A stretch of DNA of 64,000 bases from an uncultured virus (IMG/VR IMGVR_UViG_3300022879_000001) (taxonomy: Duplodnaviria > Heunggongvirae > Uroviricota > Caudoviricetes), in the IMG/VR virus record IMGVR_UViG_3300022879_000001. One strand, written 5' to 3'. The notes beneath the pieces are model-generated. The model saw only the letters and a list, made by a program, of their open reading frames with translations. It searched no databases and had not been told where the DNA came from. Of the stretch, positions 46,195 through 63,741 are shown in pieces; position 1 is the first letter of the stretch, and each line of letters starts with the position of its first letter. The position numbers were made by a program, and so were the translations under genes.

Positions 46195-46236
46195 TCCTAT
46201 CCTTATGTATTTTTTTAAATATTTTATTCATATAAA

Positions 46237-46972: not shown

Positions 46973-47016
46973 TTTTATTCCTCCAATTAGTTTATATTGT
47001 TTAATCTTACCAAAGA

Positions 47017-47427
47017 CTAATTTACTTTACCAACAAATAAAGCAGGGTCAATTTTAACTTCTGTATTATTGATAGGATTAATACCTATTATTTTATTTCT
47101 GCTAATTCCTTTAAACTTGAATAGCAGTGCATATGATTTACGTTGTTCTAAGATGTAGAAGAATTCACCTTCCTTTAAAGTCTTCCATTCTTCATTTTTA
47201 ATTTCTTCAACTTTTTCAGTAGCCTTTTCTACTAATTTCGAGAACATTCCAACCGGTACATTGTATTGCTTATCATTCATAGAGCCGATAAAATTCTTTT
47301 GCTTTAGACGAACAAATTTCATTATGTCACCATTCACTAACTCGATTTTATCACCTTCAGATAAAGTTTTTAATTCTTTAATTTTACCTTCTACAATCCA
47401 AGATAAGCTAATTGTTTGAGTTGTCAT
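47017..47427 (-). CDS. hypothetical protein with two SH3-like repeats
   Basis: LKTLSEGDKI and WKTLKEGEFF duplicated halves; promoter TTGTAC-N17-TATACT at 47507-47535. Confidence 0.65.
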   Translation of the reverse strand: MTTQTISLSWIVEGKIKELKTLSEGDKIELVNGDIMKFVRLKQKNFIGSMNDKQYNVPVGMFSKLVEKATEKVEEIKNEEWKTLKEGEFFYILEQRKSYALLFKFKGISRNKIIGINPINNTEVKIDPALFVGKVN

Positions 47428-47629
47428 TTTATTTTTCTCCTTTTGGTTTGATGCCTTGTTGCATCTACAACCTTGAATGTTTTATGTAACTTTCTAACTT
47501 AAATATAGTATACCATAGATTTTTAATTTGTACAACTATACTTATGTATTTTATTAAATAAAAAGTTAAAGTAAAAAAAAGAGTAACCAAAATATAAATT
47601 GGCTACTCCAAGTATCCAAGCTTTCATCT

Positions 47630-47815
47630 TTAACTTTCCCTCGATCTGATCACAGCAATTACAATTCTAACTATAAATACAATCACAAGTATTCCGTACA
47701 ATCCAATAATAACCCAATCAAATACATTCAAATTGTTGAAATCAATCCATTGATACATCAAGAACGGCAAGAACAATATAAAGAATAAATTTAGATAACC
47801 GATTTTCTTTAGCAT
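47630..47815 (-). CDS. small two-TM membrane protein, YoyJ-like
   Basis: 61 aa, very hydrophobic; directly downstream of the YonT-like ORF. Confidence 0.6.
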   Translation of the reverse strand: MLKKIGYLNLFFILFLPFLMYQWIDFNNLNVFDWVIIGLYGILVIVFIVRIVIAVIRSRES

Positions 47816-47844
47816 ATTTTAAGTGAGTATGGTAATATTATTAT

Positions 47845-47932
47845 CAATAGGGAAGGGGAATAAATCCCCTCCGACTACTTGCGACTTTTCTTCTTTGACT
47901 TTTGGTAGGGCTTAGAAGAAGGTCGCTTTTTG
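47845..47932 (+). ncRNA. candidate cis-antisense antitoxin RNA (SR6-like); ends approximate
   Basis: Extended -10 TGGTAATAT at 47830-47838; hairpin GCGAC...GTCGC followed by TTTTT; antisense to the 3' end of the toxin ORF. Confidence 0.5.
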
Positions 47933-48030
47933 CTTGTCCTCATATCGTGTATGTCTTTTAAGGAAGAAGTAATTCCTTTAAAGATTGCAACGACTGAGCC
48001 TGTTATCATGATAATGTGCTCAATATCCAT
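47875..48030 (-). CDS. 51-aa type I toxin, YonT-like (missed by the ORF track)
   Basis: MDIEHIIMITGSVVAIFKGITSSLKDIHDMRTSKKRPSSKPYQKSKKKSRK: hydrophobic N-terminus, K/R-rich tail; strong SD; promoter with TGGTATAAT. Confidence 0.65.
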   Translation of the reverse strand: MDIEHIIMITGSVVAIFKGITSSLKDIHDMRTSKKRPSSKPYQKSKKKSRK

Positions 48031-48243
48031 ACTACACTGTGTCATCTCCTTTCCTTTAATATAATTCTATTATACCATTTTATACATAAATTACAATACT
48101 TTTATGTATTTTATTATTTAATTTTTAGATAAAAAGCATATATTATAAAAACTTTAAAATATACAGGACAGTACAAAAGGTGACTATATAGGTTGTTATA
48201 CTGTCTTAATACTTTAAAGTTTAAATTACTATTTTGGATCATC

Positions 48244-48534
48244 TCAGTGGTTAATATTTTGTTGATAATACAAGTAAATGAGGTAACCAATATTTTTCTT
48301 AATTGAGTATTTCATGCAAAGTTTATCTATCGTGTTAAAATATTTATTATACAAATATTCATTCTCGTCTTCATACGCAACTCTAACAGTTTCAACAAAG
48401 AATTCTTCATTTTCATTTGTAGCAGCATCTAAAATTTTGGAAATAGTATCCTTCATTATTTCAATGCGTTTCCCACTTTCTTCTACACTTAAAACTGCAT
48501 TCATAAAAGTTATAAATTCAGTTTTATTATCCAT
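48244..48534 (-). CDS. hypothetical protein
   Basis: GAGGTG RBS, 96 aa. Confidence 0.6.
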   Translation of the reverse strand: MDNKTEFITFMNAVLSVEESGKRIEIMKDTISKILDAATNENEEFFVETVRVAYEDENEYLYNKYFNTIDKLCMKYSIKKNIGYLIYLYYQQNINH

Positions 48535-48543
48535 TATGACACC

Positions 48544-48984
48544 TCACTTATCTAGCTTTTGTAGGATAACCGTTTCATTTTTTAAATAGAATATTTCTCT
48601 AAGCAATGCTTGCTTGATAAATTGTGATACGTTAGGTGAGTGATGGTTATTTAAGTCTAATGAATACGCAACATCATCAAATCTAATTAAATGATCATAA
48701 ACTTTAGATACATTAACTACAAATTCTTTATAGTTACGTACATAAGTCAAAACAGTATTGTAAGTCCAATCCTCATCATAATATACTGTAAAGCTAGACT
48801 GTAGCGAATATTCTTCAAATTTACCAGTATAAGTTACTGAAATTGCATCATCTGATATTTGCAAATCTACGAAATAGTTATCATTTGATAAAGACACTAA
48901 CAACATGATATCAATATCTTCAACTGTCATACCAAGTAAATTAGCTTCTTTTCCTACAAATTCTTTCAATGTTGAAAATTCCAT
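48544..48984 (-). CDS. hypothetical protein
   Basis: GGGAGG RBS; promoter TTGTAA-N17-TACAAT at ~49135-49163. Confidence 0.65.
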   Translation of the reverse strand: MEFSTLKEFVGKEANLLGMTVEDIDIMLLVSLSNDNYFVDLQISDDAISVTYTGKFEEYSLQSSFTVYYDEDWTYNTVLTYVRNYKEFVVNVSKVYDHLIRFDDVAYSLDLNNHHSPNVSQFIKQALLREIFYLKNETVILQKLDK

Positions 48985-49491
48985 TTTTAAATCCTCCCAA
49001 AATTTAGTATCCTTATGTATTAATCATAACTTAAAACCTAATCTAAATAAATAACTGTATCTAATTTACTTACTTAGATTAACCTTCAAGTAGTCAACTT
49101 AATGACTTGTTTATATTTCCTTGTCTTTATACTTATTGTACACTATTTCGTATATGGTTACAACTATTTTTATGTATTTATTTAATTAATTTTACTGATT
49201 ACAAATATGAGCATAAAAATTGCTATAGCGTTGACAGATAGAGCGACTTTATAAAACGATACTTTATCTTCTTGATCATCTTCTGGTGTCCAAAAATAAT
49301 TGTCAATTGCAGCTATACATTTTTGCATCAAGATACAATTCACCTCACTTTATAAGTAGGGGGAGATGCTCATAAATTAGATATTGATTATGATTCAGTA
49401 AGTGTTCAATCAATAAAAGAAATAAACGATTAAATTTCAATGATATAACCACAATAAGGAGTGACCAAAAATGAAAAGATATCTATCTTTA

Positions 49492-49749
49492 TTATTGAAT
49501 TACAGAAGCGTATAATAATCCTTCAAATTTAGCGAAACCGTTTATCATTGTATTATTTTTATTTTCTTCAGAAAGTTCTTTGATAGCGTTAATTTCATAA
49601 GTAATGTCATCTTTCTTAATCCAATCACCATCTTTTAAAGTAGTCATTTTTGGATCAATTTGTCTAATATCAATTTCTTCTTCATACCATGTTTTTCCTT
49701 TGTTTTGACTAACCATTAATTTTTCAATTTGCGTTTTTCTCATTTTCAA
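49492..49749 (-). CDS. hypothetical protein
   Basis: GGAGG RBS. Confidence 0.6.
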   Translation of the reverse strand: MKMRKTQIEKLMVSQNKGKTWYEEEIDIRQIDPKMTTLKDGDWIKKDDITYEINAIKELSEENKNNTMINGFAKFEGLLYASVIQ

Positions 49750-49782
49750 TTCCTCCGATTTTTTATAAAATACTGTTTTTAC

Positions 49783-49932
49783 TTAATCGTTCATTTCACG
49801 GCAATACTCAAATGCTTCTGATTTATTTCTAAATGCTCCATGTAGTATTTCTTCTTGGTGGTCTCGTACTTCCCACATTTCTGATTGATTGTCATAAGTC
49901 ACATAAAAAGTCATTTCTGATAATAAACGCAT
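49783..49932 (-). CDS. 49-aa hypothetical protein (missed by the track)
   Basis: MRLLSEMTFYVTYDNQSEMWEVRDHQEEILHGAFRNKSEAFEYCREMND; GGAGG RBS. Confidence 0.6.
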   Translation of the reverse strand: MRLLSEMTFYVTYDNQSEMWEVRDHQEEILHGAFRNKSEAFEYCREMND

Positions 49933-49971
49933 TTTCTTTTCCTCCAATTTTAAATGATATAGTATTTTTAA

Positions 49972-50454
49972 TTAAACTGTAGCACTAATTTTACGTTCTG
50001 CTATTGATACGATGCATTTAATATTATTGATAGTAAGGTTCCAGTTATGAGCTAGCAGCTTGTTTCGCTTGTCTGTTAACTTACCCTGAAGCTTTGTCAT
50101 TGCATCTGATAATAATTGCTTAACATTACTTAATTGCTGTGTAGCTTGCTGATAGTCTTCTTTAGCTGTGGTTACAGCATTGGAAGCTAATTCTTTGAAG
50201 TATGTAACAAGTTGTACTGTAGTTGAATTTTCAATTTCTAATTCTTCATTTTGTGTATTTTGTTCTTTTACTTCTAATTTAACTAATTCAGTATAGTGAT
50301 CTGTTAACATTACAATGATTTCATCTTTACGCATTTTACGCTTTTTACGCTTTTCTTCACGGTTATACCATGCTAAACCTTCTTTAGTTGCCTCAGTTTG
50401 TAATTCCTTAGCTTTCATAGTAGATAATGCACTGATTTTGTTTTGTAGTTTCAT
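49972..50454 (-). CDS. hypothetical protein with Rho-N/SAP-like N-terminus (start MKLQNK)
   Basis: AAAGGAG RBS before the ATG at 50454; LSTMKAKELQTEATKEGL...MRKDEII; promoter TTGACG...TAATAT. Confidence 0.6.
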   Translation of the reverse strand: MKLQNKISALSTMKAKELQTEATKEGLAWYNREEKRKKRKMRKDEIIVMLTDHYTELVKLEVKEQNTQNEELEIENSTTVQLVTYFKELASNAVTTAKEDYQQATQQLSNVKQLLSDAMTKLQGKLTDKRNKLLAHNWNLTINNIKCIVSIAERKISATV

Positions 50455-51239
50455 TTTTATTTCTCTCCTTTGAGTGATTATGTATTTTTTAACTGTCTTC
50501 ATATTATCATGTAAAGATTATATCCGTCAATATATTTTATGTATTTTGTTATTTAATTTTTATTATTTAATCTGAATCGTTGATATTACTAGGATTATTG
50601 AGATTGTGAGAGAAATAGATTTGAGTTTCTTCCTATTAAATGAATAAAACAAAAACAATATCTAGACAATAAGTGGTCAAATATTAATGAGATCATATTC
50701 AAACCTACAGAGTACAGTTCCAGAAGCTAATAAAGTTTTTTACAAAAAGATTATGTTATTGCTGGATCATTGTCAATTAACGTTAATTGAAAGGTGGTAG
50801 AGGAGTTAGGCAGCAACATCTAGTTTAATCTATTATAAATTCGAATGAATGTATGGATCAATAAGAAGAAAGCCATTAATTCCACACTATTTAAGCTATT
50901 TCACATAAATAAATACATAATAATACCTTAAAAGTTAAAAATATGAATTATTTTAAAAAAACACTTGTATCTTACTGATAAGATATATATAATTTACTTA
51001 TAGCTTACTTATAAGATAAATGGATAGAAAACGTGAAAAGTAGTTGATACTAAGAATGATTAATTAGTGATTAATCGAATAAAACAATTAAAAATTACAT
51101 ATTAACCATTAATTAGAAATTTATTTAATTCTAAATATGAAAAATAATCCAATTTCGTGGTTATACAAGTTAAGTCGTTGTGATATAATGAAGACAACAA
51201 CTATAAAATAATAAAATAAATAAAAGGGAGAATGAGAAC

Positions 51240-51569
51240 ATGATGATTCAATTAAAATTAGTTGTTAATAATGCTGTGGGGTATAATGCTGAGATCCAAT
51301 ACAATAAATATGAGGTTTATAACACTTTATTGCAGATGAATGAATCAGTAAGAGAAGAGTGTATCAATAACATTAATGCAGAATATGGTTTTGAATTAGT
51401 TGATAAATATGATTTAGCTCGATATGAAATTTCAGTTAATAACTCTAATGAAGAATTGGAAATGCATACTTTATTTACTCCAACCTTCACTAAAGATGAA
51501 ACTGATCACTATAAGGAACAAATGAAGGAGCTGCAAAAGGGTTATATGAAGTTGTTAGCTAATCAATAA
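51240..51569 (+). CDS. hypothetical protein, first gene of the rightward array
   Basis: AAAGGGAG RBS; extended -10 TGATATAAT at 51181. Confidence 0.65.
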   Translation: MMIQLKLVVNNAVGYNAEIQYNKYEVYNTLLQMNESVREECINNINAEYGFELVDKYDLARYEISVNNSNEELEMHTLFTPTFTKDETDHYKEQMKELQKGYMKLLANQ

Positions 51570-52345
51570 TAAAAGTTACATAATAATATGTATATAAACA
51601 GGCTTATTTTTTAACCGTTAAATAAACATATACATAACATTTTATAGTAAATGGTATTTGATATCACAAAGAGTGAAAACTCTACTCTATGTTTATGGAA
51701 ACAATTGATAATGCTGCTTACTGTATGTATTTATGTAATATATCAATATTATTAGAAGTCACTTGTGAAAAAGAGTAATTATAATAGAAGTGTTAGCATA
51801 TAAAATATGAAGAAACTAGAACCTTATGAACATATTTCAAAACTATAGAATTAAAAAATCAATTCGTAGAATTTTTGAATGCGAAAATAGAGATAGATAG
51901 AAATCTTGATTTATTAATTGTGTGATTTTGAAATATTAATACAAGAATAATTTTAAGTAGTGAAAGTAGTGATCAACATCATCTTATTGATTGGTTAACT
52001 TTATTCTCCAGTACAATGCAATGGGAATCAGACAAGATAACTACTAATTACAAAGAGTTTGCAGGATCATGGGGGATTAAGAAGGTAAATGTATTAGGAC
52101 GTTTAGAATCGATTACAAAGCATTTAGATGAATACTACGATCAAAAGGTAAAGATTGAAGTGTAAAGAAAATTAAATAACAAAATACACAAAATTGATTG
52201 ACTTGTGTTTTGCAAATATGGTAATCTTAGGTTAAGAAAATGGTGTCTTCGACTAACTAGAAATGCTCATTATAATTTGTAGTTGGAAGTTGTATACCAT
52301 TTCAGCATCAAGTAAAATTAAGACAGTGATCAGGAGGAATTATAG

Positions 52346-52582
52346 ATGGATAAGAAAGATATGTTATTAATGAAACTGGAATCAGAAAGAGATTATTCAA
52401 AACGTCAGGTACTGCAATCGATCAATACTTTGAAAAATATCTTGAATAGTCTTGAGAAGAATATCGATGAAGATAGTATCAAAGCTGATGAAGGTATGCA
52501 AGGTAATGAATGGCGTTTATATAAAGAATTATCTAATTTAGAGCGTTTGAATTCATTTATCAAAGAAGTGAAGAAATTTTAA
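52346..52582 (+). CDS. hypothetical protein
   Basis: AGGAGG RBS; promoter TTGACT...TGGTAATCT at ~52198. Confidence 0.65.
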   Translation: MDKKDMLLMKLESERDYSKRQVLQSINTLKNILNSLEKNIDEDSIKADEGMQGNEWRLYKELSNLERLNSFIKEVKKF

Positions 52583-52630
52583 GTTATTCTGTAAAAGTTA
52601 ATACTAGCTAAAAATAGGAGGAATTGAATA

Positions 52631-52852
52631 ATGAAAGAATTTTTCGAAGTGTATGATAAATGGAAGTTTAAGAAAGGATTTAAATTAGAAATTTATCATT
52701 CAGGTATTATGGATTACTGCTTGATTATAGTTTTAAAATCAAATGAATCTAATCCAATCATAAATATTCAAGATAGTGATTATGAACTGTTGTTTGCAAA
52801 AGGTCAGGTTGCTCTTAAAGAATGGCTACTGGAATATAACGAAGGTTATTAA
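52631..52852 (+). CDS. hypothetical protein
   Basis: AGGAGG RBS. Confidence 0.65.
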   Translation: MKEFFEVYDKWKFKKGFKLEIYHSGIMDYCLIIVLKSNESNPIINIQDSDYELLFAKGQVALKEWLLEYNEGY

Positions 52853-52910
52853 TTAATATCAGCATTTTATGAAATTATTTTAAAACATGTAATTTAAGGA
52901 GTTTATAATA

Positions 52911-53180
52911 ATGTACGACTATGAAGATTTGAAAAGCGAAGAAAAAAACGATAATCCAGAGGAATTTTATATTAATGAGATGGTGGGTAAAATTAGGTCT
53001 TATCGTATTCATCGAGATATATCTCAACGTGAGCTATCTAGGATATCAGGAGTTACACAAAATATTATTTCCCGTATGGAGAATGGAACAAGAACACCTC
53101 AATTTCAAACACTAGTAAAATTAATTGATGCATTAGACTTGGAGCTAACTCTAAGTATAAAACCGAAAAATAAGCAATAA
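52911..53180 (+). CDS. XRE-family HTH regulator
   Basis: RDISQRELSRISGVTQNIISRMENGTRTPQFQTL. Confidence 0.88.
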   Translation: MYDYEDLKSEEKNDNPEEFYINEMVGKIRSYRIHRDISQRELSRISGVTQNIISRMENGTRTPQFQTLVKLIDALDLELTLSIKPKNKQ

Positions 53181-53250
53181 TATGAAAGCTTAAGTTAGTT
53201 TTAGGACAGTTATATCTTGATTTGAATAAGGAAGAAGAGGAGAGTCAACA

Positions 53251-53853
53251 ATGGATAAAACAACATTTGATATGATTAAAAAATTTCATAGTATAGAAAA
53301 TGATATTTATTATAAATTATGCGAAAGAGGTATGGATTCTAGTGAAGTAGAAGGTATACTACATGATTCAGGTGATTATTACTCACAGCTATTAAGATTA
53401 GGGAAATATTCTGTTGAAGAAGAATGCGTAAATAAGGAAACATATATTCAAGAACCATACGAAGATATCGAAAGATATATTAAGTTATATGTGATTTACG
53501 AGTATGATAATGGAATGGCTTTATGTGAGACTACATCTGGTTCAATTTGTTTAGTTCCACAGCGACATTTAGCTTGTTTTAACGAAGAAGAAAATACAGA
53601 TGATGAAGAGTATGATGAATATGAAGATGACGAAGAAAAAGAAGCTGAAATTTTAATTTCAAAATTAGAGGTTGATAGTGAATATGTAGTCAGCTACCTT
53701 GATTTAAAAATTGATAAATTTAAGCATTTATTCTTTGATTCTAAAGAAAAAGCTGTAGCTGTATATAAGGAAGTAAAAGCTAATAAAGACTGTATGTCTG
53801 AAATGATTCAGAGTAAAAAAGAATATGAAAAAGATGAATTAGGAATTGATTAA
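53251..53853 (+). CDS. acidic hypothetical protein
   Basis: GAGGAG RBS, 200 aa. Confidence 0.65.
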   Translation: MDKTTFDMIKKFHSIENDIYYKLCERGMDSSEVEGILHDSGDYYSQLLRLGKYSVEEECVNKETYIQEPYEDIERYIKLYVIYEYDNGMALCETTSGSICLVPQRHLACFNEEENTDDEEYDEYEDDEEKEAEILISKLEVDSEYVVSYLDLKIDKFKHLFFDSKEKAVAVYKEVKANKDCMSEMIQSKKEYEKDELGID

Positions 53854-53892
53854 GATTAAAAGTATTTTATTAAGTGGATAGGGAGATATTTC

Positions 53893-54276
53893 ATGAAAAA
53901 TATCGGATTTGGAGTTAGCGATGATTATCTAAGTCAGTTTCAAAAACATTCAACAGAAGGGTATATTACTTCGTACACTTTAGAGATAGACTTTTTCGAT
54001 GAAGCAGAAGTAATCGGTGTTATTAATGTGATTTTTGACATAATTGGATATGGAATAGAGGGTTTTGATGGGGGTATTGATATTTCATATAAAGTTATGT
54101 ATTTTCAAGATCCAGTAAACAAAAAAGATTATCTAGACGATAACGAGGCTTTCATTTATATTTTCTCAAACTATGGAAACGATATAATGACTGTAGTTGA
54201 CTTAGCTTATGATGCTTTAGACGATTTTTATACAAAAAGTACGCCATTGAGTCAATTCGCAAAGCATTTCAAATAA
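53893..54276 (+). CDS. acidic hypothetical protein
   Basis: GGGAG RBS; D/E-rich. Confidence 0.65.
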   Translation: MKNIGFGVSDDYLSQFQKHSTEGYITSYTLEIDFFDEAEVIGVINVIFDIIGYGIEGFDGGIDISYKVMYFQDPVNKKDYLDDNEAFIYIFSNYGNDIMTVVDLAYDALDDFYTKSTPLSQFAKHFK

Positions 54277-54314
54277 CATAAAACAGCGATTTTACAGAAA
54301 GTAAGGAGATTTGT

Positions 54315-54560
54315 ATGAAAGAAATTATTTCAAAATCAAAAGCACTACAACTAATTCAAAATGGTACAGTTGTTAAATCTACTTTAGAAGACGGTACACT
54401 TGAAATTAAAAGAGTTAAAAAAGGTATTTATGAAGTAAGTATTGTATCAGATGAAGAGATTGATGGTGAAAATAATCATATTTATCTAGGAGATTTTACA
54501 GGCTTAATGAAAAGTATTAATGGTATTTTAGGAAAAAGTGGATTGTATATTGAAAAATAA
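54315..54560 (+). CDS. hypothetical protein
   Basis: AAGGAG RBS. Confidence 0.6.
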   Translation: MKEIISKSKALQLIQNGTVVKSTLEDGTLEIKRVKKGIYEVSIVSDEEIDGENNHIYLGDFTGLMKSINGILGKSGLYIEK

Positions 54561-54578
54561 AATCGAGGTGAAGGCTAT

Positions 54579-55109
54579 ATGAATACAAAAGAAAAGGCAG
54601 CAAAAGAAATTTTCGAATTTATAGAATCTAATAAGGAATGTCTACTTCTAACTGGCACTCATATGTTTAAGAAACATGAATTACTAGTGTCTATATTAAA
54701 TAAGATACCTAATAAAAATATATTGTTTCGTACCAATGCTATGAAAAATTTAGGCACTTTTCTTAAAGCCAATACACAGTTTAAATCAGGCGTAGCCTAC
54801 TCAGTTGTTAATAATATCAATTATTATTTCGATTCAATTGATATTAAGACTTGGAATAGGTCTCCGTATGATATAGATTTTGCTATAGTCTATCCAGTAA
54901 GTTCAATATTAAGTAAAGGTTTATATATTAAGGTACTGAAGGATTTGCAAGAAAGAGGAGCTAAAAAGATATTTTTCGTAAGTTGTCAAGAGACGTATGA
55001 TTTCTCGATTCTAGATAACTATATTGATCAAAAAGTAATTTATGATGTTGAAGAAGAGGATATAGAATATCACAATAGGGTACTTGAAGGTAAAAATAGA
55101 ATAAAATGA
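54579..55109 (+). CDS. hypothetical protein, degenerate P-loop-like fold
   Basis: CLLLTGTHMFKKH resembles a diverged Walker A region. Confidence 0.55.
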   Translation: MNTKEKAAKEIFEFIESNKECLLLTGTHMFKKHELLVSILNKIPNKNILFRTNAMKNLGTFLKANTQFKSGVAYSVVNNINYYFDSIDIKTWNRSPYDIDFAIVYPVSSILSKGLYIKVLKDLQERGAKKIFFVSCQETYDFSILDNYIDQKVIYDVEEEDIEYHNRVLEGKNRIK

Positions 55110-55138
55110 AGTTATTATTGAAAATGGGAGATGATAAT

Positions 55139-55363
55139 ATGAAACTAAAAGTTGGGGATGTGGTAAGAAAACCAACAGGGCTTTTTGTAGTAACTGATAT
55201 ATCGAAAGAGAAAGGAGTTAAATTTGAAGACTTCAAAAATTACATTAACAACAATTATTATATTGAATTTAACGGAGATCGGCTTTCACTGAATGAAATT
55301 AATGAGATATTATGTGAAGAGTATTTGACACTTGGCAAGAAGACAGTTATTGAAATTGACTAA
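55139..55363 (+). CDS. hypothetical protein (start MKLKVGDVV)
   Basis: GGGAG RBS before the ATG at 55139. Confidence 0.6.
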   Translation: MKLKVGDVVRKPTGLFVVTDISKEKGVKFEDFKNYINNNYYIEFNGDRLSLNEINEILCEEYLTLGKKTVIEID

Positions 55364-55415
55364 TGAAAATGATTGATAATATAGAACTATTATTAAATAT
55401 TGGAGGAATGGAATT

Positions 55416-55676
55416 ATGAAAACAGTATCAAGTATTAAATTATTGGAATTTGCAGATTCTTATGTGCAAGATGGAGTGCTAATTAAGTGGAGATGGTTTG
55501 ATGTTGATCCAAATTCAATGGAGTATAAATTAGAAGAGAAACGCTTTAAAAAGTCTGAGCTAACTAGTGACGATATTGAATACATGAAGACAAGAGGTAA
55601 TTTAGTAGTGGAAGTGAATGGTGAAACAGAACTATTTAACTTTGATGAAGAACGTTTAGAGAAATTGAAAATGTGA
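55416..55676 (+). CDS. hypothetical protein
   Basis: GGAGG RBS. Confidence 0.6.
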   Translation: MKTVSSIKLLEFADSYVQDGVLIKWRWFDVDPNSMEYKLEEKRFKKSELTSDDIEYMKTRGNLVVEVNGETELFNFDEERLEKLKM

Positions 55677-55715
55677 CCGTATAAAACACATCTATTATTG
55701 AAAGAGGGAAATCAT

Positions 55716-56075
55716 TTGTTTCATGAACGATTAAAAAAGTTAAGAGAACAAGAAAATATTAGTCGTGAACATTTAGCTGATTTATTGAGCATTACATACT
55801 CTGCATTATCTAAATATGAAACTGGAAAAAGAGAACCTGATTTTAAATTGTTACAAAAAATAGCAAACTATTTCAATGTAACAATCGATTATTTGCTTTG
55901 CAATACAGAAGAGAGTATGAAACCTATACAACAAGATAATGGTATGGTTTGCTTCCAAGTATCTAATAACAATCCTGAATTACAAGAATTTTATAATGAA
56001 TTGGCTGCTTCAGATGAGGAGACAGTCAAACATTTACGAGGTATATGGGAAATTATGAAACAAATTAAGAAATAG
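55716..56075 (+). CDS. XRE/ImmR-like HTH repressor
   Basis: RLKKLREQENISREHLADLLSITYSALSKYETGKREPD; GAGGG RBS before the TTG at 55716. Confidence 0.88.
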   Translation: MFHERLKKLREQENISREHLADLLSITYSALSKYETGKREPDFKLLQKIANYFNVTIDYLLCNTEESMKPIQQDNGMVCFQVSNNNPELQEFYNELAASDEETVKHLRGIWEIMKQIKK

Positions 56076-56121
56076 CTTTATAATTATTAGAATAAAAATG
56101 CTTAACAAGGAGGATTTTTAA

Positions 56122-56472
56122 ATGGAACAAGCAACTAAATTTTTTCAAGATTTTAATACTGGGTTAAAGGAAATAACTAACATTTCTAATGAAATTAAAG
56201 ACTGGTTTTCAAATGTGGATGTTTCAAATTTGGATGAACCAAAAGCAAGGGATTATTTATCAAACCATTTCGCAAAAGAGAATGAAACATTATCTACTAC
56301 AGATTCTAGTTTATGGTATGAATCAAAAGAAAATTTAGGCTTAACGTGGAAATATTATCATGTAAACAATGAGTATGCATTCATTGTGGATGGTTATTAT
56401 TTTGACGATAACGAGAACTTAAAGAGTAAGTTTCACGAAGCAGAAGGTTGGAAAGTGGTACCTTATATCTAA
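56122..56472 (+). CDS. hypothetical protein
   Basis: AGGAGG RBS. Confidence 0.65.
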   Translation: MEQATKFFQDFNTGLKEITNISNEIKDWFSNVDVSNLDEPKARDYLSNHFAKENETLSTTDSSLWYESKENLGLTWKYYHVNNEYAFIVDGYYFDDNENLKSKFHEAEGWKVVPYI

Positions 56473-56570
56473 TTTGCTGACCAATGTGAGGAAGTTGCCA
56501 AAATGTAAGAAAGAGGGCAAAAACGTTGCAGAGAGTAAGCGAAAAAAAATGTACAGTAAGGAGAGAGAAC

Positions 56571-56744
56571 ATGCACTGTAAACAGTGTAACCGAAAATTC
56601 AAAGAGACAGATGAAATTGTACTGTCTACTATAAATGGCGAAGCTTATTTGCACACTGATTGTCATTATGATTGGTTAATCAGATGCGATTCACACGATT
56701 ACGTAACCTATGATGAAATGATGGGCGAAGTTGAAAAAGCGTAA
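56571..56744 (+). CDS. small Zn-binding protein (start MHCKQC)
   Basis: CKQC...HTDC; AGGAG RBS. Confidence 0.55.
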   Translation: MHCKQCNRKFKETDEIVLSTINGEAYLHTDCHYDWLIRCDSHDYVTYDEMMGEVEKA

Positions 56745-56788
56745 CTGCACAATATGAAAGAAAGCTTACACTATGAGGAGGATTATTT

Positions 56789-57319
56789 TTGATTGTATAC
56801 ACTGTTCAACCTGAATTTATTTATAAGAAAATTCGTGAGCAAGGATACTTAGAAGGAGATAAAAAATTTGCTATGTTTCCAGAAGCCTACGATTGGATGG
56901 TAGATCAAATGGAAAAGCGCATAGTTAATTGTAAAATGGAAAATAACCCTATATGGTTATGGCAAAGAAAACCAAGCGGAAATGAAAAAGCACTTGCAAC
57001 AAAAGGAGAAAGATGGGTTATTTTAAAATTAGATGTTCCAGAAGATAAAATTTTATGGACATCATTCGATGATTGGCATTCCATTCTAAATAATAATCCA
57101 ATAACTTATAATGAAAAAGAATGGGATTCTTTTAACGAAAGAGGATTTACAAAGGAAGAAGTTTCAAAAACTTGGGATCGATTATTTGACCATGAGTGGT
57201 TAGCAAGTAGACCAACTGAATGGGCAGGTAATTATAACGAGCATTGGATGCAAGGTGTTACTCAACGAATTACAATGGAACAAGTTAAGAAAGTTACACG
57301 CTTTATAGGCAAAGGATAA
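56789..57319 (+). CDS. DUF3841-like protein
   Basis: AYDWMVDQM...PIWLW...SFDDWHSILNN. Confidence 0.7.
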   Translation: MIVYTVQPEFIYKKIREQGYLEGDKKFAMFPEAYDWMVDQMEKRIVNCKMENNPIWLWQRKPSGNEKALATKGERWVILKLDVPEDKILWTSFDDWHSILNNNPITYNEKEWDSFNERGFTKEEVSKTWDRLFDHEWLASRPTEWAGNYNEHWMQGVTQRITMEQVKKVTRFIGKG

Positions 57320-57423
57320 TGGTTGAAATTCTTAATTCTTATAAAAAGAATTGGTTGTAAGGCAAAATAAGAATGGAGGTATTCTGTGTTTTAATAAACA
57401 ATATACATAAAGGTTGAATTGAA

Positions 57424-58044
57424 ATGAAAGAGAATAATAAAATATGGCTGCAAGTACCAACTGAAATTGTTAGAAATATTGGATTTAAAATTGATGAGAA
57501 GTCTTTTGCTGTTTATGCATTTTTACTTTTTAAGAAGTTTAAAGCATTTAATATTAGTGAAATAGACGTTTTACTTAAAGATATAAAAGTTGTAACAGGA
57601 ATTACTGATAATAGGACTATTAAGAAATGTTTTTTGAATCTACATAATCAAGGGCTAATTATGAATAAAATTGATAAATTACCTATTAATAATCCTCTAC
57701 AAATTACAATGTTAAAACCTTATAAAGATGACTTTTTTACACAAATGCCATTAAATTTAATCAAATCAATTGATAGTATAGGTTTAATTGGATTTAGATT
57801 AATGTACTATTATGAGTCTTATATAAACAGGAACGACATGGCAAAGCTATTTTGTTATCCAAGTTATGAAACTATTCAAATTGATTTAGGAATAAGTAAT
57901 TTCTCTGTAACAAAGTACAATAAAATGTTAGTAAAAGAAAAGCTAATTACTATTACTAAACACAAAGCAGAATATGATCCATTTGGAGATTGCGGATTAG
58001 AGAAGTTTAATAACCATTATAGTGTCAATCTACATAAAATATAG
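57424..58044 (+). CDS. tandem winged-HTH protein (replication-initiator-like)
   Basis: Two wHTH units; CYPSYETIQIDLGIS motif. Confidence 0.65.
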   Translation: MKENNKIWLQVPTEIVRNIGFKIDEKSFAVYAFLLFKKFKAFNISEIDVLLKDIKVVTGITDNRTIKKCFLNLHNQGLIMNKIDKLPINNPLQITMLKPYKDDFFTQMPLNLIKSIDSIGLIGFRLMYYYESYINRNDMAKLFCYPSYETIQIDLGISNFSVTKYNKMLVKEKLITITKHKAEYDPFGDCGLEKFNNHYSVNLHKI

Positions 58045-58410
58045 AAACCTAAAAAGGAAGAAAATAAAGGATAATTAACACGATTAGAATTTTACCTGAA
58101 AAGGTGAAATTATGAATCGTAAATACTGTATATTATGTATCTTATATATTATTCTTTATATACAAAGATTTATGCAACCTTTGCTAGTAATTCGCTTTAT
58201 GAGATATGGTAATTGAACTAGGCAATAGTTGCATTTGGCTTTACTAATGAATTAACGCTTATTTAATTCATAGAGAGCTCCAATTTATTTGATATATAAA
58301 GTGTGCTGAATAGTAATAAAACGTCTAAAATCAATTGGAAATTATATTAAAAGTTAAATAAAAGATAAATATTATCAAACCAATACATAATCAAGAATAG
58401 GTGAATTATT

Positions 58411-58818
58411 ATGAGTGGTAAAATTAAAGTAAATAAAGACATAAAAAATGCATTAGATGGTCTCATCTTTAAAGGTGAAGAAATCATATCTGAGAGAACT
58501 AAAAAGAAACGCATAGAAAACATTATTCAGTGTCATGCAAAATACGGGCATTGGAATGGTTATAAACAATTGAATAATTTAACATTAATAGAATTAACGA
58601 AAATGTTGATTAATGGATATGAAGTTGAGCCGTCACTAGAAGAAAAATTAGTTAAACATTTCTCTGACCATAAAGAAATAGTAAAATTTTATGATGGAAA
58701 GAAAGAGTTAGATAAATGTGAAATTGAACAATATAACTTTTCTAGAGGGTATGTTACTGCATATGAAGATTTACTGTCAGGAAAAGTGGACTTAAATAAG
58801 ATTAAAATCACTAAATAA
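58411..58818 (+). CDS. hypothetical protein (DUF1642-like segment)
   Basis: LTKMLINGYEVE motif; AGGTG RBS. Confidence 0.6.
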   Translation: MSGKIKVNKDIKNALDGLIFKGEEIISERTKKKRIENIIQCHAKYGHWNGYKQLNNLTLIELTKMLINGYEVEPSLEEKLVKHFSDHKEIVKFYDGKKELDKCEIEQYNFSRGYVTAYEDLLSGKVDLNKIKITK

Positions 58819-58863
58819 AAACTGAATATTACGGAATGGACACTAATATAAGGAGTAAGATAT

Positions 58864-59184
58864 ATGACAATAATAGTAAATGTTAATGATTTAAAGAGAT
58901 TATCTGAAAATTTCTATTTAACGGTGGAGTCACAATTAACCGATGAGATATTAGAAAAATGCAAAGAGTATGCTTCAAATGGTCTTTATCGTTATTATCA
59001 TAAATTTGAAGATTCAGTGGAACAAAATGAAATATTAATTGTTAAGAAAAAGCTAGAATCAATGGGTTTTACAGTTGAAAGCAGAATCATGTCTTATCCT
59101 AAAACAAAAGTACGTTGGTATACTCGTATGAAAAATGTAGAATATCATAATGACAAAGTAATGACAGTTACTTGGAGTGATTAA
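58864..59184 (+). CDS. hypothetical protein
   Basis: AAGGAG RBS. Confidence 0.6.
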   Translation: MTIIVNVNDLKRLSENFYLTVESQLTDEILEKCKEYASNGLYRYYHKFEDSVEQNEILIVKKKLESMGFTVESRIMSYPKTKVRWYTRMKNVEYHNDKVMTVTWSD

Positions 59185-59252
59185 ATAAAAGTGATTTTTT
59201 TTATTATAAAAAATACATATAACTAAAAAGATAAAAGGGGTAAGCTATACAT

Positions 59253-59480
59253 ATGATGAAAAAGATTACATTTACAATGTCTGTTATTTATGACGAAGAA
59301 GACATTAACGCCAATAACGCATTGGATGCTATTGAGCATGAAATATTTAATATTGAAGGTGTTAAACAATGGGATGTAGATGATCAGAATGTAGTAATTG
59401 AAAATATAGAGGTTGAATATGACGATGAAGAAGAATATGACTTTCACCAAGAGGACTATGTTATACACAATGAAGATTAA
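59253..59480 (+). CDS. very acidic small protein
   Basis: 75 aa, about one third D/E. Confidence 0.6.
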   Translation: MMKKITFTMSVIYDEEDINANNALDAIEHEIFNIEGVKQWDVDDQNVVIENIEVEYDDEEEYDFHQEDYVIHNED

Positions 59481-59537
59481 TTAATATGTTCATTTTATGA
59501 AATAAAAATATTGTACAGAACTGAAAGGGTGGAGGAA

Positions 59538-59978
59538 ATGGCATTTGAAGTATGGAAATGCGTAGAGAAAGATTGTAAAGGATTTGTTGTATTCGATAAT
59601 GCAGATTTTGATTTTAATAACATCCCAATACTAGATGGCATTTATGCATTTTATGATCCGTCTTGTACTGAATGTGGTAAGGAATATAAAGTTGTTCCAC
59701 ATTACACTGTAGTAACGGCAGAGGACGAATTTAAAGAAGCTACTAGTACATGTATAACTAAATTTGAGAAACGAGAACAAGAGCGTAAATTCGAAAACGA
59801 AACAGTTCCTTATTTCAAGGTGGAGAAATTTATCCAATTACGAGGATATTCTTACTCAGTAGATTCTGTTATGAATGGGTATCGTGCAAAACAACGAGGT
59901 GAATACATCAGTTATACAATGAAAGATTGTGTAAATAATTTGGAAAAGGAATTACAAGAGTTAGTAGGTATTTGCTAA
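59538..59978 (+). CDS. Zn-finger hypothetical protein (start MAFEVWKC)
   Basis: CVEKDC...CTEC; GGTGGAGG upstream. Confidence 0.6.
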   Translation: MAFEVWKCVEKDCKGFVVFDNADFDFNNIPILDGIYAFYDPSCTECGKEYKVVPHYTVVTAEDEFKEATSTCITKFEKREQERKFENETVPYFKVEKFIQLRGYSYSVDSVMNGYRAKQRGEYISYTMKDCVNNLEKELQELVGIC

Positions 59979-60083
59979 ATGGATAAATAAAAGATTCGTA
60001 TTATGAAATGGTTTGTGGAATATTGGAAAAACAAATAGTAGCTTGATATAATTGGTATAAAAATATAGGAAGGTTGTTGTTTT

Positions 60084-61298
60084 TTGTACTATAAAGAGGA
60101 AAACTTATTCTTTAAAGGGGATTTATATAATTTTTTAGAAATGAAAAAGCGAGAGATTAAAAATCACATTGAATCTGAAGAAGAGAACTATATTTTAAAT
60201 ATAGGTCAAGAGCAATTCATAGATTATTTAATAAAAAAATTTAAAATAGATACTATAGAGATACTAGAAGGCGGAATATATGGGGATGAGGTGGAGGAAT
60301 TAGTTACGTCTCTTTATGGAAACAGAACAAACTTAATTAAAAAGCCTGTAATATACTACAATATCCCTTTTAACGGTGATAAAAACCTATTACATTGCGT
60401 ACCATCGACATATTACAGTATCTTTCCAAAAGCTCATGTCGAAGAAGGAAAGATAATAAAGTACTTTGTAGTTTATGAAGATTATCAAACAGTTGAAAAC
60501 AATTTCCAAAAATTCAAAAATGATTTGATGGATTATGTTAGAAATGTTAATGCTGATTTAGAGGTATATAATTCTAATCTCCAAAATTTTATTTCAAATA
60601 TTTTCATAACGAGGAAAACTGAGTTCTTGAGAAGAATGGAATTAAAATCTGGATTATCTATTCCAATAAAAAAGAAATCAGGCGTCCCAAGTACTTTTTC
60701 TATACCTGATGTAAAAGTTAAAAAGAAAATATTTGTTAAACCAATTGAAACTGAAAGTAATTTTGCTCCTGATCCAACATTAGACGACAAAACTTATAAT
60801 GACATATTGAAAATAATAAATGATATGGGTAAAGAGTTTGAACGTAAACCTGCCGTTTATGGAAATAAAGGAGAAGAGGCATTGAGGGATCATTTCTTAG
60901 TGTTGTTAGAACCACACTTTGATGGTAGCGCTACTGGAGAAACATTTAACAAAAGTGGTAAAACAGACATTTTACTAAGATATGAAGGTGAAAATGTATT
61001 TGTTGGCGAGTGTAAATTTTGGACAGGTGAAAAAGGATTCTTACAAACGATTGACCAATTATTAGGATACTTAACTTGGAGAGATTCTAAGACTTCTGTG
61101 ATAATGTTTGTAAGGAATAAAGATATTACAAGCGTCATTGAGACAGCGAAAGAATCAATTCAAAAGCATGAAAACTTTATTAAGTTTGTGGATGAAAAAG
61201 ATGGTAGTTGGTTTAATTATATCTTCCACTTAAATGGAGATAAGAATAAAGAAATAAAAGTTGCAGTTATGCTTTATCATACACCAAAAGATGAGTAA
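60084..61298 (+). CDS. PD-(D/E)xK nuclease-domain protein, candidate defence moron
   Basis: C-terminal EEALRD...GKTDIL...GECKFW...DQLLGY; own promoter with TGATATAAT at 60044-60052. Confidence 0.7.
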   Translation: MYYKEENLFFKGDLYNFLEMKKREIKNHIESEEENYILNIGQEQFIDYLIKKFKIDTIEILEGGIYGDEVEELVTSLYGNRTNLIKKPVIYYNIPFNGDKNLLHCVPSTYYSIFPKAHVEEGKIIKYFVVYEDYQTVENNFQKFKNDLMDYVRNVNADLEVYNSNLQNFISNIFITRKTEFLRRMELKSGLSIPIKKKSGVPSTFSIPDVKVKKKIFVKPIETESNFAPDPTLDDKTYNDILKIINDMGKEFERKPAVYGNKGEEALRDHFLVLLEPHFDGSATGETFNKSGKTDILLRYEGENVFVGECKFWTGEKGFLQTIDQLLGYLTWRDSKTSVIMFVRNKDITSVIETAKESIQKHENFIKFVDEKDGSWFNYIFHLNGDKNKEIKVAVMLYHTPKDE

Positions 61299-61685
61299 TC
61301 AATTTAATACTCGTCTAAATAAGAGTATAGTATTAAGCAGGGTAGATTAATTTCTACTCTGTTTAATTAACAAAATACATAAATTATTATTGAATTAAAT
61401 GGATTGTGGTGTTAATATGACTATAAGAAGTAAACTACTACTAAAATTTAGGAGGTTTTAGAAATACATAATCATTGGACTTTCACACAAGCAGACGATA
61501 TCGAATGGGTACATGAAGCATTTTATAGCAAAATAGACGCTAGAGCAGAAGGAAAGAAAATGTTTAAAGGTAAAGACATTATAATAGGGCAGTTGAAGGA
61601 TCATGGAAATAGGTATGTTGTAGTAAATCAAGAAGTAATTAAAGTTAGTTAAAAGAACCGTTTTATAAAGAATAGGAGGTGTAAA

Positions 61686-61877
61686 ATGAATTATCAAGTG
61701 AAGTTAAAGGAAATCGATTTAAGGGAAGCTGTAAGAATAATGGATCGATTCACAGTGTTTTATAGCTATGAAATTGGCACTGGTGTGTTTTTACTAAACA
61801 AAGAAAACTTATCTACAGCAATTAATGGAGATGCAATCTATTTAACTCCTTATGGATGGTTAGAGTTAGAAGAATGA
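61686..61877 (+). CDS. hypothetical protein
   Basis: AGGAGGTG RBS. Confidence 0.6.
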   Translation: MNYQVKLKEIDLREAVRIMDRFTVFYSYEIGTGVFLLNKENLSTAINGDAIYLTPYGWLELEE

Positions 61878-61923
61878 TGTTTCATTGATAGAGGAGTTTT
61901 ATTGAAACTAAGGAGGATGAAAT

Positions 61924-62223
61924 ATGCGCAGCTCTAGTTTTAAAACAACAGAAGAAGTAATTGAGTATGCTAAGTCATTAGGAATGATGAAAGTCGAGTA
62001 TGATGATGGAATTTATTATGATTTATGTTTTGAATTTCACTCAGGATTAAGATTAGTCAATCATGATCCAGATATAAATTGTTGGATTTTACAATTCAAA
62101 GAAGATATATCTTATGCTCAAATTGTAAATACAAGCTTGGATTTTAAGGAAATCAGTATTGATGAATGTTTAAGCAGTGTGGTAAAAATTAAAGAGATTG
62201 TAGAATTAACTAATCTACAATAA
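61924..62223 (+). CDS. hypothetical protein
   Basis: AGGAGG RBS. Confidence 0.6.
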   Translation: MRSSSFKTTEEVIEYAKSLGMMKVEYDDGIYYDLCFEFHSGLRLVNHDPDINCWILQFKEDISYAQIVNTSLDFKEISIDECLSSVVKIKEIVELTNLQ

Positions 62224-62259
62224 ATTATTTAATTAAATAATAAAAGGAGAAAATACATA

Positions 62260-62532
62260 ATGGAACGAAAATTAGTATTAGTTGGAATGTTAGGATTTAC
62301 AGTTTTATTTGGATGTAGTCAGAGTGATGAGGGGAATGTAAGTGCTAGTGATCAAGGTGAGATGAATGTAATGTCAGTAGATAGAGTACACAATGGAGAA
62401 GCAGTTATACTTAAACATAAAGATACAGGTTGCTACTATACATATGTCAGAGGTACTGGCAGTAGTACATCTTCTGCTCCAACTCAGATGATGCTTGTAA
62501 AAGAAGGTGTAGTTGTTCCGTATTGTGATTAA
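62260..62532 (+). CDS. small lipoprotein (DUF6440-like)
   Basis: Lipobox LFGC; ILKHKDTGCYY motif. Confidence 0.65.
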   Translation: MERKLVLVGMLGFTVLFGCSQSDEGNVSASDQGEMNVMSVDRVHNGEAVILKHKDTGCYYTYVRGTGSSTSSAPTQMMLVKEGVVVPYCD

Positions 62533-62780
62533 TTAAATAAATTGATTCTATTATCTAAAGTAAAAATTACACAAATGAAATGAGGAGTTAAATTTAAACA
62601 TTAATAAACAAGAGATTTTTGAAAAAGCTATGGAAGAAGCATCTAAAGTTTTAGGAGCTGACCCTGCGTATTTCGGTGAAGAAGGAAAAGAAGAAGTTGA
62701 GAAACAATTAATTAAAATGGGGTATACACTAGATGAATTAAGAGAGAATTAAAATAGATAGAAAAAGGGGAGTTGTTTAG

Positions 62781-63059
62781 ATGGAATTTAAATTCGAAGA
62801 AGCAGTTTCACGAGGTAGCGTATTTAAAACATTACAAAAACAATATGTAGAATTAGACTCTACTCAGAAAAAGATAATCGACAAACTGTTGATGAGCTTT
62901 AACTATTCTGAAGAATCTACTGAAATACTTAACTCGATTATTGAGTTAGTTGCTATTACAAATTATCATCTTGGTGCGGATCGTCAGAAAGATGCTTTAA
63001 TTGAAAATGCAAAACGCAAAATAGAGGAACTAGAGCATACTTATATTAATCGAGGTTAA
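62781..63059 (+). CDS. hypothetical protein
   Basis: GGGGAG RBS. Confidence 0.6.
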   Translation: MEFKFEEAVSRGSVFKTLQKQYVELDSTQKKIIDKLLMSFNYSEESTEILNSIIELVAITNYHLGADRQKDALIENAKRKIEELEHTYINRG

Positions 63060-63097
63060 ATAATAGTCACGTTTTATAAAAGGAGGGAGGGGTTAGT

Positions 63098-63323: not shown

Positions 63324-63662
63324 ATGACAAACAAAGATGTAATTAATAAATGGAGAAAAGTTATTGAGGGTGATTTTATTGCGGTTAAGAATGAGTGGAC
63401 TATTCCGAAGCGTGTTTCAGTTGAACAGATTAAAGCGAAGATAAATGCTTTAAATGATGAGCATGCAGGTATTTTAGTGAGACACAAGGCTACTACAAAC
63501 TTATACAGAATCACACATTTCAGCGTATTAAATGAAAAAGGTGAAGCTGAATATGCGGTAAACTATCATCCTTTTGACGAAAATACATTACGTGATCATG
63601 ATAAGGTTAAATTTACTAGACCTGCTTCTGAATTCTTTGATGGTCGATTTAAGTTTAATTAA
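63324..63662 (+). CDS. DUF1653-like protein
   Basis: VRHKATTNLYRI...AVNY...FTRPASEFFDGRF. Confidence 0.6.
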   Translation: MTNKDVINKWRKVIEGDFIAVKNEWTIPKRVSVEQIKAKINALNDEHAGILVRHKATTNLYRITHFSVLNEKGEAEYAVNYHPFDENTLRDHDKVKFTRPASEFFDGRFKFN

Positions 63663-63711
63663 TATATTTGTATTATAAAGTACATATCAGATACAATAAA
63701 ACAAACAATCA

Positions 63712-63741
63712 GAGTAGGATAAATATTATCTTACTCTTTTT
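63712..63741 (+). terminator. intrinsic terminator
   Basis: GAGTAGGATAA...TTATCTTACTC followed by a T run. Confidence 0.7.

Follow-up and report, generated by a model that had tools for sequence, protein, structure and literature searches.

Why the seams of tailed-phage mosaics lie exactly between genes is an old question, for which linker sequences on the one hand, and random illegitimate joining followed by selection on the other, have been considered. It is raised again by an uncultured member of Caudoviricetes (IMG/VR record IMGVR_UViG_3300022879_000001), of which a stretch of 64,000 nt, here called the window, was analysed. The window represents half of the genome of a large SPbeta-like siphovirus from a soil metagenome and has G+C content of about 30%. 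Small genes in its last part are separated by copies of the palindromic sequence TAAWA-N6-TWTTA (W is A or T), here called joint sites, which an earlier note on this DNA had ascribed to a possible gene-cassette system of integron or pdif type. More likely than not, these sites are protein-read, addressed crossover joints for gene exchange between phages.

A two-fold symmetric site of SPbeta-like phages

In the whole window, 26 matches to TAAWA-N6-TWTTA were found, while 5.32 were expected from 100 dinucleotide shuffles (sd 2.32, largest count 10). A control with other spacings is the better test, because composition acts equally on every spacing. Between positions 49001 and 64000, the N6 spacing occurs 17 times and each other spacing from N0 to N20 only 0–5 times; between 1 and 49000 there is no enrichment (N6 9, other spacings 0–10). 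When only intergenic DNA was taken (25 plus-strand junctions, 2302 nt, 74% AT), N6 was found 12 times and the other spacings 0–2 times. Shuffling within these junctions (5000 shuffles) yielded 0.385 sites on average and at most 4, or 0.381 and 5 when the stop codon was held fixed, so the formal test against a composition-matched background resulted in 12 intergenic sites for about 0.39 expected. All 12 exact positions given in the earlier note are present, as are its four one-mismatch copies (59186, 61320, 61886, and 62538), and five exact copies had been missed (51089, 51736, 53857, 63660, and 60959, the last one inside a 404-aa ORF).

Among the 25 plus-strand junctions between 52582 and 63662, an exact site is present in 13 and a site with at most one mismatch in 16. 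The site starts 0–13 nt past the stop codon, or the stop codon lies inside it, and it ends about 20 nt upstream of the next start codon; the placement described before, at or after a stop codon and before the next ribosome-binding site, is borne out by these positions. Stop codons in all three frames occur within −6 to +22 at 9 of 14 sites (3.0 in shuffles), which we regard as a secondary benefit of such a joint where the genes of an operon are tightly packed. The spacer differs in every copy, as had been stated, and all window centres are distinct. The string shared at 52850 and 59478 was also seen, and the conserved downstream bases appear as T.AAA.

The sequence TAAWA-N6-TWTTA is the core of a two-fold symmetric site in double-stranded DNA. 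In 81 Lysinibacillus-type sites, the outer arms have T−4 in 60 and T−3 in 68, mirrored by A20 in 74 and A21 in 64. In 56 SPbeta-type sites, T−5, Y−4, and T−3 are mirrored by A20, R21, and A22 (A22 in 52 of 56). The site of the window lineage is TT-aaA-TAAWA-N6-TWTTA-T-n-a-AA, about 26 bp in a 10-6-10 arrangement, and SPbeta proper has an 11-6-11 version; per arm, about five bases are strongly fixed and 2–3 outer ones are weaker. Inverted arms around a fixed 6-bp centre had been recognized already, and these arms are mirror images extending to 10–11 bp. This duplex shape is the one expected for a dimeric DNA-binding protein. The downstream side is asymmetric at T17 and A19–21, and a bump at the N9 spacing in Lysinibacillus-type phages represents N6 sites followed by TTA.

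The joint site is specific to the phages and not to their hosts. A 210-kb contig of Lysinibacillus zambalensis carries the closest prophage and a total of 72 sites; its last 90 kb contain 64 of them, and the initial 65 kb, which are host DNA, contain a single one. There is no enrichment on a 164-kb contig of host DNA (C7; N6 8, other spacings 2–14). SPbeta has 37 sites (backwards control 5, other spacings 1–11) and BUCT082 has 39 (backwards control 2). In SPR, Goe14, and the IMG/VR provirus G003, 39, 34, and 37 sites were counted, with other spacings not above 11. The prevailing form in these five genomes is TAAAA-N6-TTTTA. In SPbeta, too, the sites are placed at gene ends, and their TAA serves as the stop codon, for example, in yoqG, yoqS, yoqY, yorT, mtbP, yorZ, yosC, yosF, and yosR. 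No excess of the motif was seen in Lysinibacillus phage LC76P1 (10 vs. 8 backwards, other spacings 2–15), Sundance (1 vs. 7), KKP_3916 (2 vs. 3), or LIBA2945 (23 vs. 21), and phage 6ec has a weak one (19 vs. 11). Loci sharing only the gene of the 404-aa ORF with the window (L004–L009, L066–L068, and L070) have no enrichment. The genomes of L004, L005, L006, and L009 are without the MrpR family, which is present in the motif-bearing Lysinibacillus genome and the Bacillus subtilis control; this co-occurrence is only a lineage correlation. A second MrpR-family gene of L. zambalensis (contig C20, 69588–69818) possibly belongs to a second SPbeta-like element. Enrichment in the very AT-rich Clostridium phage c-st (AP008983.1), which has a YonO homologue, is doubtful (51 sites, 2.5-fold over the 20 of the backwards control, the only control applied there).

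Several known kinds of element were compared with the site. A hairpin, cruciform, or folded RNA or DNA element was rejected, since the W positions 4 and 13 do not covary (complementary bases in just 7 of 17 sites), forcing the arms into a hairpin requires +0.7 to +2.1 kcal/mol, and the surroundings are no more stable than shuffles (minimum free energy −0.95 vs. −1.02). A sigma-70-type promoter and an intrinsic terminator were rejected because matches are at chance level (99 vs. 100.5 expected and 2 vs. 2.9 expected, respectively) and none is tied to the sites. The available part of the YonO study describes transcription of one late operon from a single start site (PMC5467207), and a YonO promoter was rejected, as the joint sites lie mostly elsewhere. 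In the accessible part of the report on MrpR, chromatin affinity precipitation sequencing (ChAP-seq) in SPbeta yielded ten peaks, all at SPBRE, a 15-bp motif at promoters (PMC10516654). Our own search upstream of the ten MrpR-bound SPbeta genes gave a common word close to CAAAWAATATGTATAWAAT, unrelated to the joint site, and an SPBRE/MrpR operator was rejected because its sequence differs.

The window has a second repeat family of about 25–28 nt, TTTTATGTATTTTGTTATTTAATT and variants, with at least nine copies among the small divergent units at 42077–52202. Examples are 42127–42154, 44731–44758, 48100–48127, 49168–49195, and 50535–50562, with inverted copies at 42210, 50900, 51203, 51565, and 52168. 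The family also matches L003 and G001, the nearest record, a 26-kb fragment without the motif region. As TTTTATGTATTTTGTTATTTAATT resembles the word upstream of the ten MrpR-bound genes, it is probably the SPBRE-type operator/promoter element of the window phage. The earlier note had allowed that the joint motif might be only a repressor operator; this is unlikely, since SPBRE differs from it and the window carries this separate SPBRE-like family.

Private centres and mosaic boundaries

A metagenome contig (L064) is 100% identical to the window over 13,917 bases and extends 7.3 kb past its end; the window with this continuation is called the extended window. No centre is duplicated in sets of 72, 37, and 37 sites, and one is among the 33 sites of the extended window, where the in-ORF copy is involved. 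There are no palindromes among the 179 centres. Between the extended window (33 sites) and the prophage contig (72 sites), 18 centres are identical and all of these are collinear, while chance would give about 0.6–1.0 and the maximum in 2000 shuffles was 5. For 10 of the 18, both 40-nt flanks are at most 45% identical, and the alignments reveal islands of 16–25 identical bases which start at the first base of the site. Such islands are the sites at 52854–52869 (centre TCAGCA, 21 nt identical to the prophage copy, both flanks unrelated), 55102–55117 (TGAAGT, 25 nt identical, flanks unrelated), and 58816–58831 (ACTGAA, 21 nt identical, flanks unrelated), the TAA of the last being the stop codon of ORF 58411–58818. 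Two further islands are at 59988–60003 (GATTCG, same centre in the prophage, flanks unrelated) and 63061–63076 (GTCACG). An exact search with the 22-nt joint of site 55102 found no match in viral contigs.

The same is seen within the Bacillus lineage. SPbeta and G003 share 24 centres, with neither flank homologous in 7 and only one flank in 9. In five SPbeta-family genomes, 64 addresses were recognized and 49 occur in at least two genomes; by a threshold of 60% ungapped flank identity, which may over-split, the context is unrelated on at least one side in 31 and on both sides in 19. When pairs were set by one homologous flank with the centre ignored, the centre was identical in 8 of 10 (SPbeta/G003) and 6 of 11 (window/prophage), and the remaining pairs differ by 1–5 centre bases. 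Retention between window and prophage is higher for junction sites (13 of 20) than for ORFs (7 of 39; p = 0.0005). Because centres are unique in a genome and kept in place across relatives, each joint has an address.

Boundaries of homology coincide with the sites. The blastn block 53857–54276 between window and prophage begins at site 53857–53872 (centre GTATTT), the left edge of a shared 127-aa gene, and stops just before the exact site 54279–54294 (CAGCGA) at the right edge of this gene; the prophage copy of the left site has a different centre (3 mismatches). Another block, 55377–55697, spans from site 55377–55392 (TAGAAC; same centre in the prophage, with an A/T change in the arm) to the end of the next site at 55682–55697 (CACATC; identical 16-mer in the prophage), where homology stops at the right edge. 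Blocks ending at 58390 and 61669 stop just past sites: the first is 16 nt beyond site 58359–58374 (GATAAA), whose prophage copy differs in one centre base, and the second is close to site 61650–61665 (GAACCG). Blocks between SPbeta and G003 likewise start or stop at sites.

Gene boundaries are the expected seams in any phage, so junctions with and without the motif were compared. Over all junctions, breakpoints fall at 13 of 28 with the motif and 40 of 197 without it (p = 0.004), and in a second comparison at 9 of 19 and 11 of 70 (p = 0.01). In the early cluster of SPbeta, compared with four relatives, at least one of them has a breakpoint at 10 of 12 motif junctions and 19 of 57 motif-less ones (p = 0.0026); with gaps of at least 25 nt only, the counts are 10/12 and 11/30 (p = 0.015). 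Breakpoints in relatives had been proposed earlier as a check, and gene replacement, gain, and loss indeed fall at the sites, which at the nucleotide level means at the site or in the gene gap.

The order of addresses is kept although the genes between them are exchanged. The window has GAACCG (61650), GAGGAG (61886), TGATTC (62538), and GTCACG (63061), and a contig (L069) whose 404-aa gene has 83% DNA identity to that of the window has GAACCG, GAGGAG, and GTCACG in the same order. Its GAGGAG site at 2191 is exact, while the window copy (61886–61901) has one arm mismatch, as has the TGATTC copy (62538–62553). GTCACG is also present in the prophage, and the cargo next to it is unrelated in all three; no tblastx match of the L069 cargo to that of window or prophage was found at E ≤ 1e-3. 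A direct junction is found in the prophage, where the GTCACG centre immediately follows the left flank and left arm that belong to the GAACCG site. Contigs of four soil runs contain the joints 58376>58811, 61666>62530 (two runs), 62554>63059, and 55703>56744. With short sides of only 21–25 nt, these joints prove nothing and are compatible with co-occurring variants that share joints. Neither circles nor excision joints were seen; the soil data are contigs assembled from public runs, which do not reveal starts, ends, or circles, and coverage of RNA-labelled libraries was not taken as transcription.

Readings of the joint sites

SPbeta-like phages keep sites at the joints between small accessory (early-region) genes, and according to the favoured reading the arms are most likely read by a dimeric protein. 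The six central bases are free to vary between sites while being unique per genome and found at the same relative place in relatives, and blocks of genes would be exchanged, gained, or lost between related phages at the joints, mostly between copies with the same address. The mosaics produced would be viable, as the stop codon in or just before the left arm and the ribosome-binding site just after the right arm would stay with their genes. From the strict dyad, we infer a protein that binds the site. Centres that are free between sites yet conserved between phages suggest a step in which two sites are compared, so that matching centres would be required, and the islands together with the seams argue for crossovers within the site. 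A more specific proposal, natural recombinase-mediated cassette exchange, is possible but tentative; here, a tyrosine-recombinase-type dimer of phage or host would exchange strands only between copies with the same centre, with 35–70 private addresses per genome.

Several observations weigh against addressed joints. In the close pair SPbeta/G003, sites are not kept more than genes (15/24 vs. 71/110). Some boundaries with homology on one side have different centres (mismatches 5; 3, 3, 4; and 3), hence exchange does not always proceed via equal centres. Single-pair tests of the early cluster are not significant (7/13 vs. 10/39, p = 0.089; 7/18 vs. 9/47, p = 0.12; 4/8 vs. 1/10, p = 0.12); their direction mostly agrees and the tests are weak, and the test from the prophage side gave no difference (4/11 vs. 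2/6, p = 1.0). Since seams fall between genes anyway and the site fills short gaps, breakpoints at the nucleotide level do not tell "at the site" from "between genes", and both the gene calls and the flank thresholds (60–65% ungapped identity) are crude. In the part of a preprint on laboratory crosses of phi3Ts and SPbeta that is available (Dragos et al.), 15 of 16 junctions lie in ordinary homology; the one described as "non-homologous" and "following yosA" could not be placed from that text relative to the site at SPbeta 116415. The support is comparative throughout, and no binding protein, cleavage, or recombination product was seen.

Rather doubtful, but to be taken seriously, is that the sites bind a regulatory or architectural protein, either in stoperator-like silencing or as sites of an HU-like protein, and that they mark boundaries only because conserved sites are the last short homology left to general or phage-annealase recombination. 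Two-fold symmetry and fixed spacing suit any dimeric DNA binder, an HU-family gene is present in the window (36151–36453, Pfam 6.7e-18), and the annotation of SPbeta includes an annealing protein, a RecJ-like nuclease, and a resolvase. The sites lie in a gene cluster which, judging from the available SPbeta literature, is silent in lysogens, and in the portion of the preprint cited above most laboratory recombinants arise within homologous sequence. A protein that binds the arms only, however, leaves unexplained the identical centres at matching positions beside unrelated genes in phages of two host genera. Moreover, 16–25 nt is short for homology-driven exchange. The ten MrpR peaks, as given in the accessible text, are all at SPBRE, a different sequence, and an HU-like gene is also present in the motif-less LC76P1, which makes the HU-like protein unlikely as a specific reader.

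The proposal of the earlier note, that a YomM-like recombinase (21176–22204, minus strand) excises and inserts single genes as circular cassettes in an integron- or pdif-like manner, is improbable. The arm-6-arm geometry with 10–11 bp arms resembles the core sites of tyrosine recombinases such as dif, lox, and FRT, and single-gene differences do fall between neighbouring sites. The recombinase (Pfam Phage_integrase 1.4e-21) also appears intact, as had been stated, with R, HxxR, H, and Y aligned to those of XerD and XerA, and it is 95% identical in the prophage. But a homologue with 59–60% identity occupies the matching late-operon place in LC76P1, whose spacing profile is flat, which speaks against action of this enzyme at the motif; it was considered and not shown to be part of the system. 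By tblastn with the window recombinase, SPbeta YomM was not found, and the best SPbeta match was yopP, with 25% identity. SPbeta YomM, SPbeta YopP, and a YopP-like protein of the prophage (c107rc 165351–166082) have Lys for the second Arg (HxxK in place of the HxxR of the family), while the late-operon recombinase of the window and its LC76P1 homologue retain HxxR. Insertion of a circle by one site would leave a duplicated centre, and no such duplicate flanks any gene among the 72, 37, and 37 sites. The sites are 16–26 bp of duplex, and the window contains neither attC-like hairpins nor an integron platform of integrase, attI, and promoter.

Among other candidate readers, a YonR-like helix-turn-helix protein is unlikely, as G003 is without that stretch and yet has 37 sites. 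A module of yopP (a Phage_integrase protein), yopQ (uncharacterised), and mrpR is common to SPbeta and the Lysinibacillus prophage and is missing in LC76P1. A host Xer-type enzyme may also be a candidate.

Quite improbable is an insulator acting at the level of mRNA and ribosome, as an AU-rich all-frame stop which keeps the next ribosome-binding site open or as a processing site. The position between stop codon and ribosome-binding site, the excess of all-frame stops, and the downstream asymmetry would suit it; symmetry of inner and outer arms is useless on a single strand, though, no stable fold is formed, and the strict N6 spacing and the conserved addresses are left unexplained. A by-product of AT-rich intergenic composition, to which the AT content of the junctions and their beginning with TAA stop codons could point, is already refuted by the spacing control, the shuffles (0 of 5000 reached the observed count), and the lack of enrichment in host DNA and LC76P1.

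Surroundings of the sites and known systems

The remaining sites of the window are as follows. Site 49766–49781 (TACTGT), between minus-strand ORFs, is exact and has no same-centre partner in the Lysinibacillus prophage. The exact site 51089–51104 (ATTACA) lies in a divergent control region and is identical to a prophage 16-mer at c107rc 134257, and the prophage copy of the exact site 51736–51751 (TATCAA) has one centre and one arm change. A one-mismatch copy is located at 59186–59201 and an exact site at 59482–59497 (TGTTCA). At 61320–61335, a one-mismatch copy follows the 404-aa gene, with exact sites of centre GGATAG at the matching place in the prophage and L069. The TAA of site 63660–63675 (TATTTG) is the stop codon of ORF 63324–63662; behind it, a hairpin at 63711–63737, the sole strong terminator-like hairpin on the plus strand, ends the gene run. 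Outside the range of the earlier note, identical prophage 16-mers match the sites at 41657–41672 (upstream of the late-gene block), 48057–48072, and 48130–48145. The site at 36116–36131 adjoins the HU-like gene, and its prophage copy has one centre mismatch and both flanks homologous.

The late genes occupy 0.6–41.6 kb of the window on the minus strand and encode tail fibre, minor tail, tape-measure, and virion proteins, portal, terminase, the tyrosine recombinase, an SbcD-like exonuclease, the HU-like protein, and a YonO-type RNA polymerase. Small units on both strands follow at 42–52 kb, and from about 52 kb there is a long series of small plus-strand genes, the majority without a family. 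The tape-measure gene (8417–18004, minus strand) is in two ORFs, 16895–18004 and 8417–14899, with a 487-aa HNH/homing-endonuclease ORF (15096–16559) between them, and looks to be split by a homing element or intron. The single-chain polymerase of 927 aa (37408–40191, minus strand) shares 52% identity with its BUCT082 counterpart and 79% with that of the prophage; its distant homologues are found in phages of Clostridium, Enterocloster, and Thomasclavelia.

The 404-aa protein (60084–61298, plus strand) is without a Pfam family. Homologues with 30–60% identity occur in Bacillaceae prophages as well as in metagenome-assembled genomes labelled Planctomycetes, Acidobacteria, Verrucomicrobia, and Alphaproteobacteria, so the gene appears widely travelled. 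The match inside its ORF (60959–60974) is conserved along with the gene (flank identity 0.85 and 0.82) and is probably a passenger of the coding sequence. A DUF3841 gene (56789–57319, plus strand; Pfam 4.9e-20) has no exact joint site at either flank. Soil runs hold variants of it about 10% diverged, one of them at higher depth (71.9 in run X15), with loose contig ends at 56777/56780 and 57319/57321, which points to the same gene in other contexts in co-occurring genomes.

With the joint sites, a defined and countable linker is available in the tractable SPbeta of B. subtilis 168 and in relatives whose hosts belong to a different genus, and the private conserved centres give clear predictions for the bench. 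If cassette exchange takes place at them, co-infecting relatives would swap accessory blocks in register, with the order unscrambled and without homology of the cargo; an enzyme dedicated to reading the sites, if there is one, would provide a new natural tool with which cassettes could be exchanged at many sites in an ordered way.

The cores of Xer/dif, lox, and FRT have inverted arms of about 10–13 bp that bind protein and a centre of 6–8 bp that must match between partners. The joint site likewise has two inverted arms of 10–11 bp around a centre within this range (N6), with about five strongly fixed bases per arm; it is known from sequence alone, and no recombinase has been tied to it. Engineered arrays of heterospecific lox or FRT sites, in which like exchanges only with like, are used for cassette exchange, and we know of no natural array of 35–70 heterospecific core sites. 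As in pdif modules and attC arrays, small accessory genes are bounded by short sites. In pdif modules, 28-bp sites of alternating orientation have an XerC arm and an XerD arm that differ from each other, while the two arms of a joint site are mirror images. The attC sites of integrons, 57–141 nt long, are folded single strands and depend on IntI adjacent to attI; the joint site is 16–26 bp long with no fold and no covariation at positions 4 and 13, and the only recombinase in the window is in the late operon, 28 kb away.

The stoperators of cluster A mycobacteriophages are asymmetric, oriented with transcription, bound by the immunity repressor, and mutually identical. Joint sites resemble them as tens of short copies in short gaps of a temperate phage, near stop codons, but they are symmetric with private centres, and the sequence bound by the known SPbeta repressor is a different one. 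SPBRE is also a repeated intergenic element of this phage family, with ten copies at promoters and an unrelated 15-bp motif. No description of the joint motif was found in full-text literature searches and SPbeta papers, a set which did not cover the genome paper of Lazarevic et al. 1999.

As far as the available text of their description goes, the promoter-early stem-loops (PeSLs) of T4-type phages (Arbiol et al. 2010, PMC2839356) consist of a sigma-70-type promoter and a stem-loop terminator. Their similarity in sequence allows recombination between copies, from which mini-circles result. Like PeSLs, joint sites are short elements repeated between small non-essential genes in plastic regions, with insertions, deletions, and replacements at the element. 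Unlike them, they have neither promoter or terminator signal nor stable stem, and are two-fold symmetric with private centres. On the basis of that text, PeSLs are the closest described system, alike to the joint sites in their part in genome evolution while sharing none of their structure.

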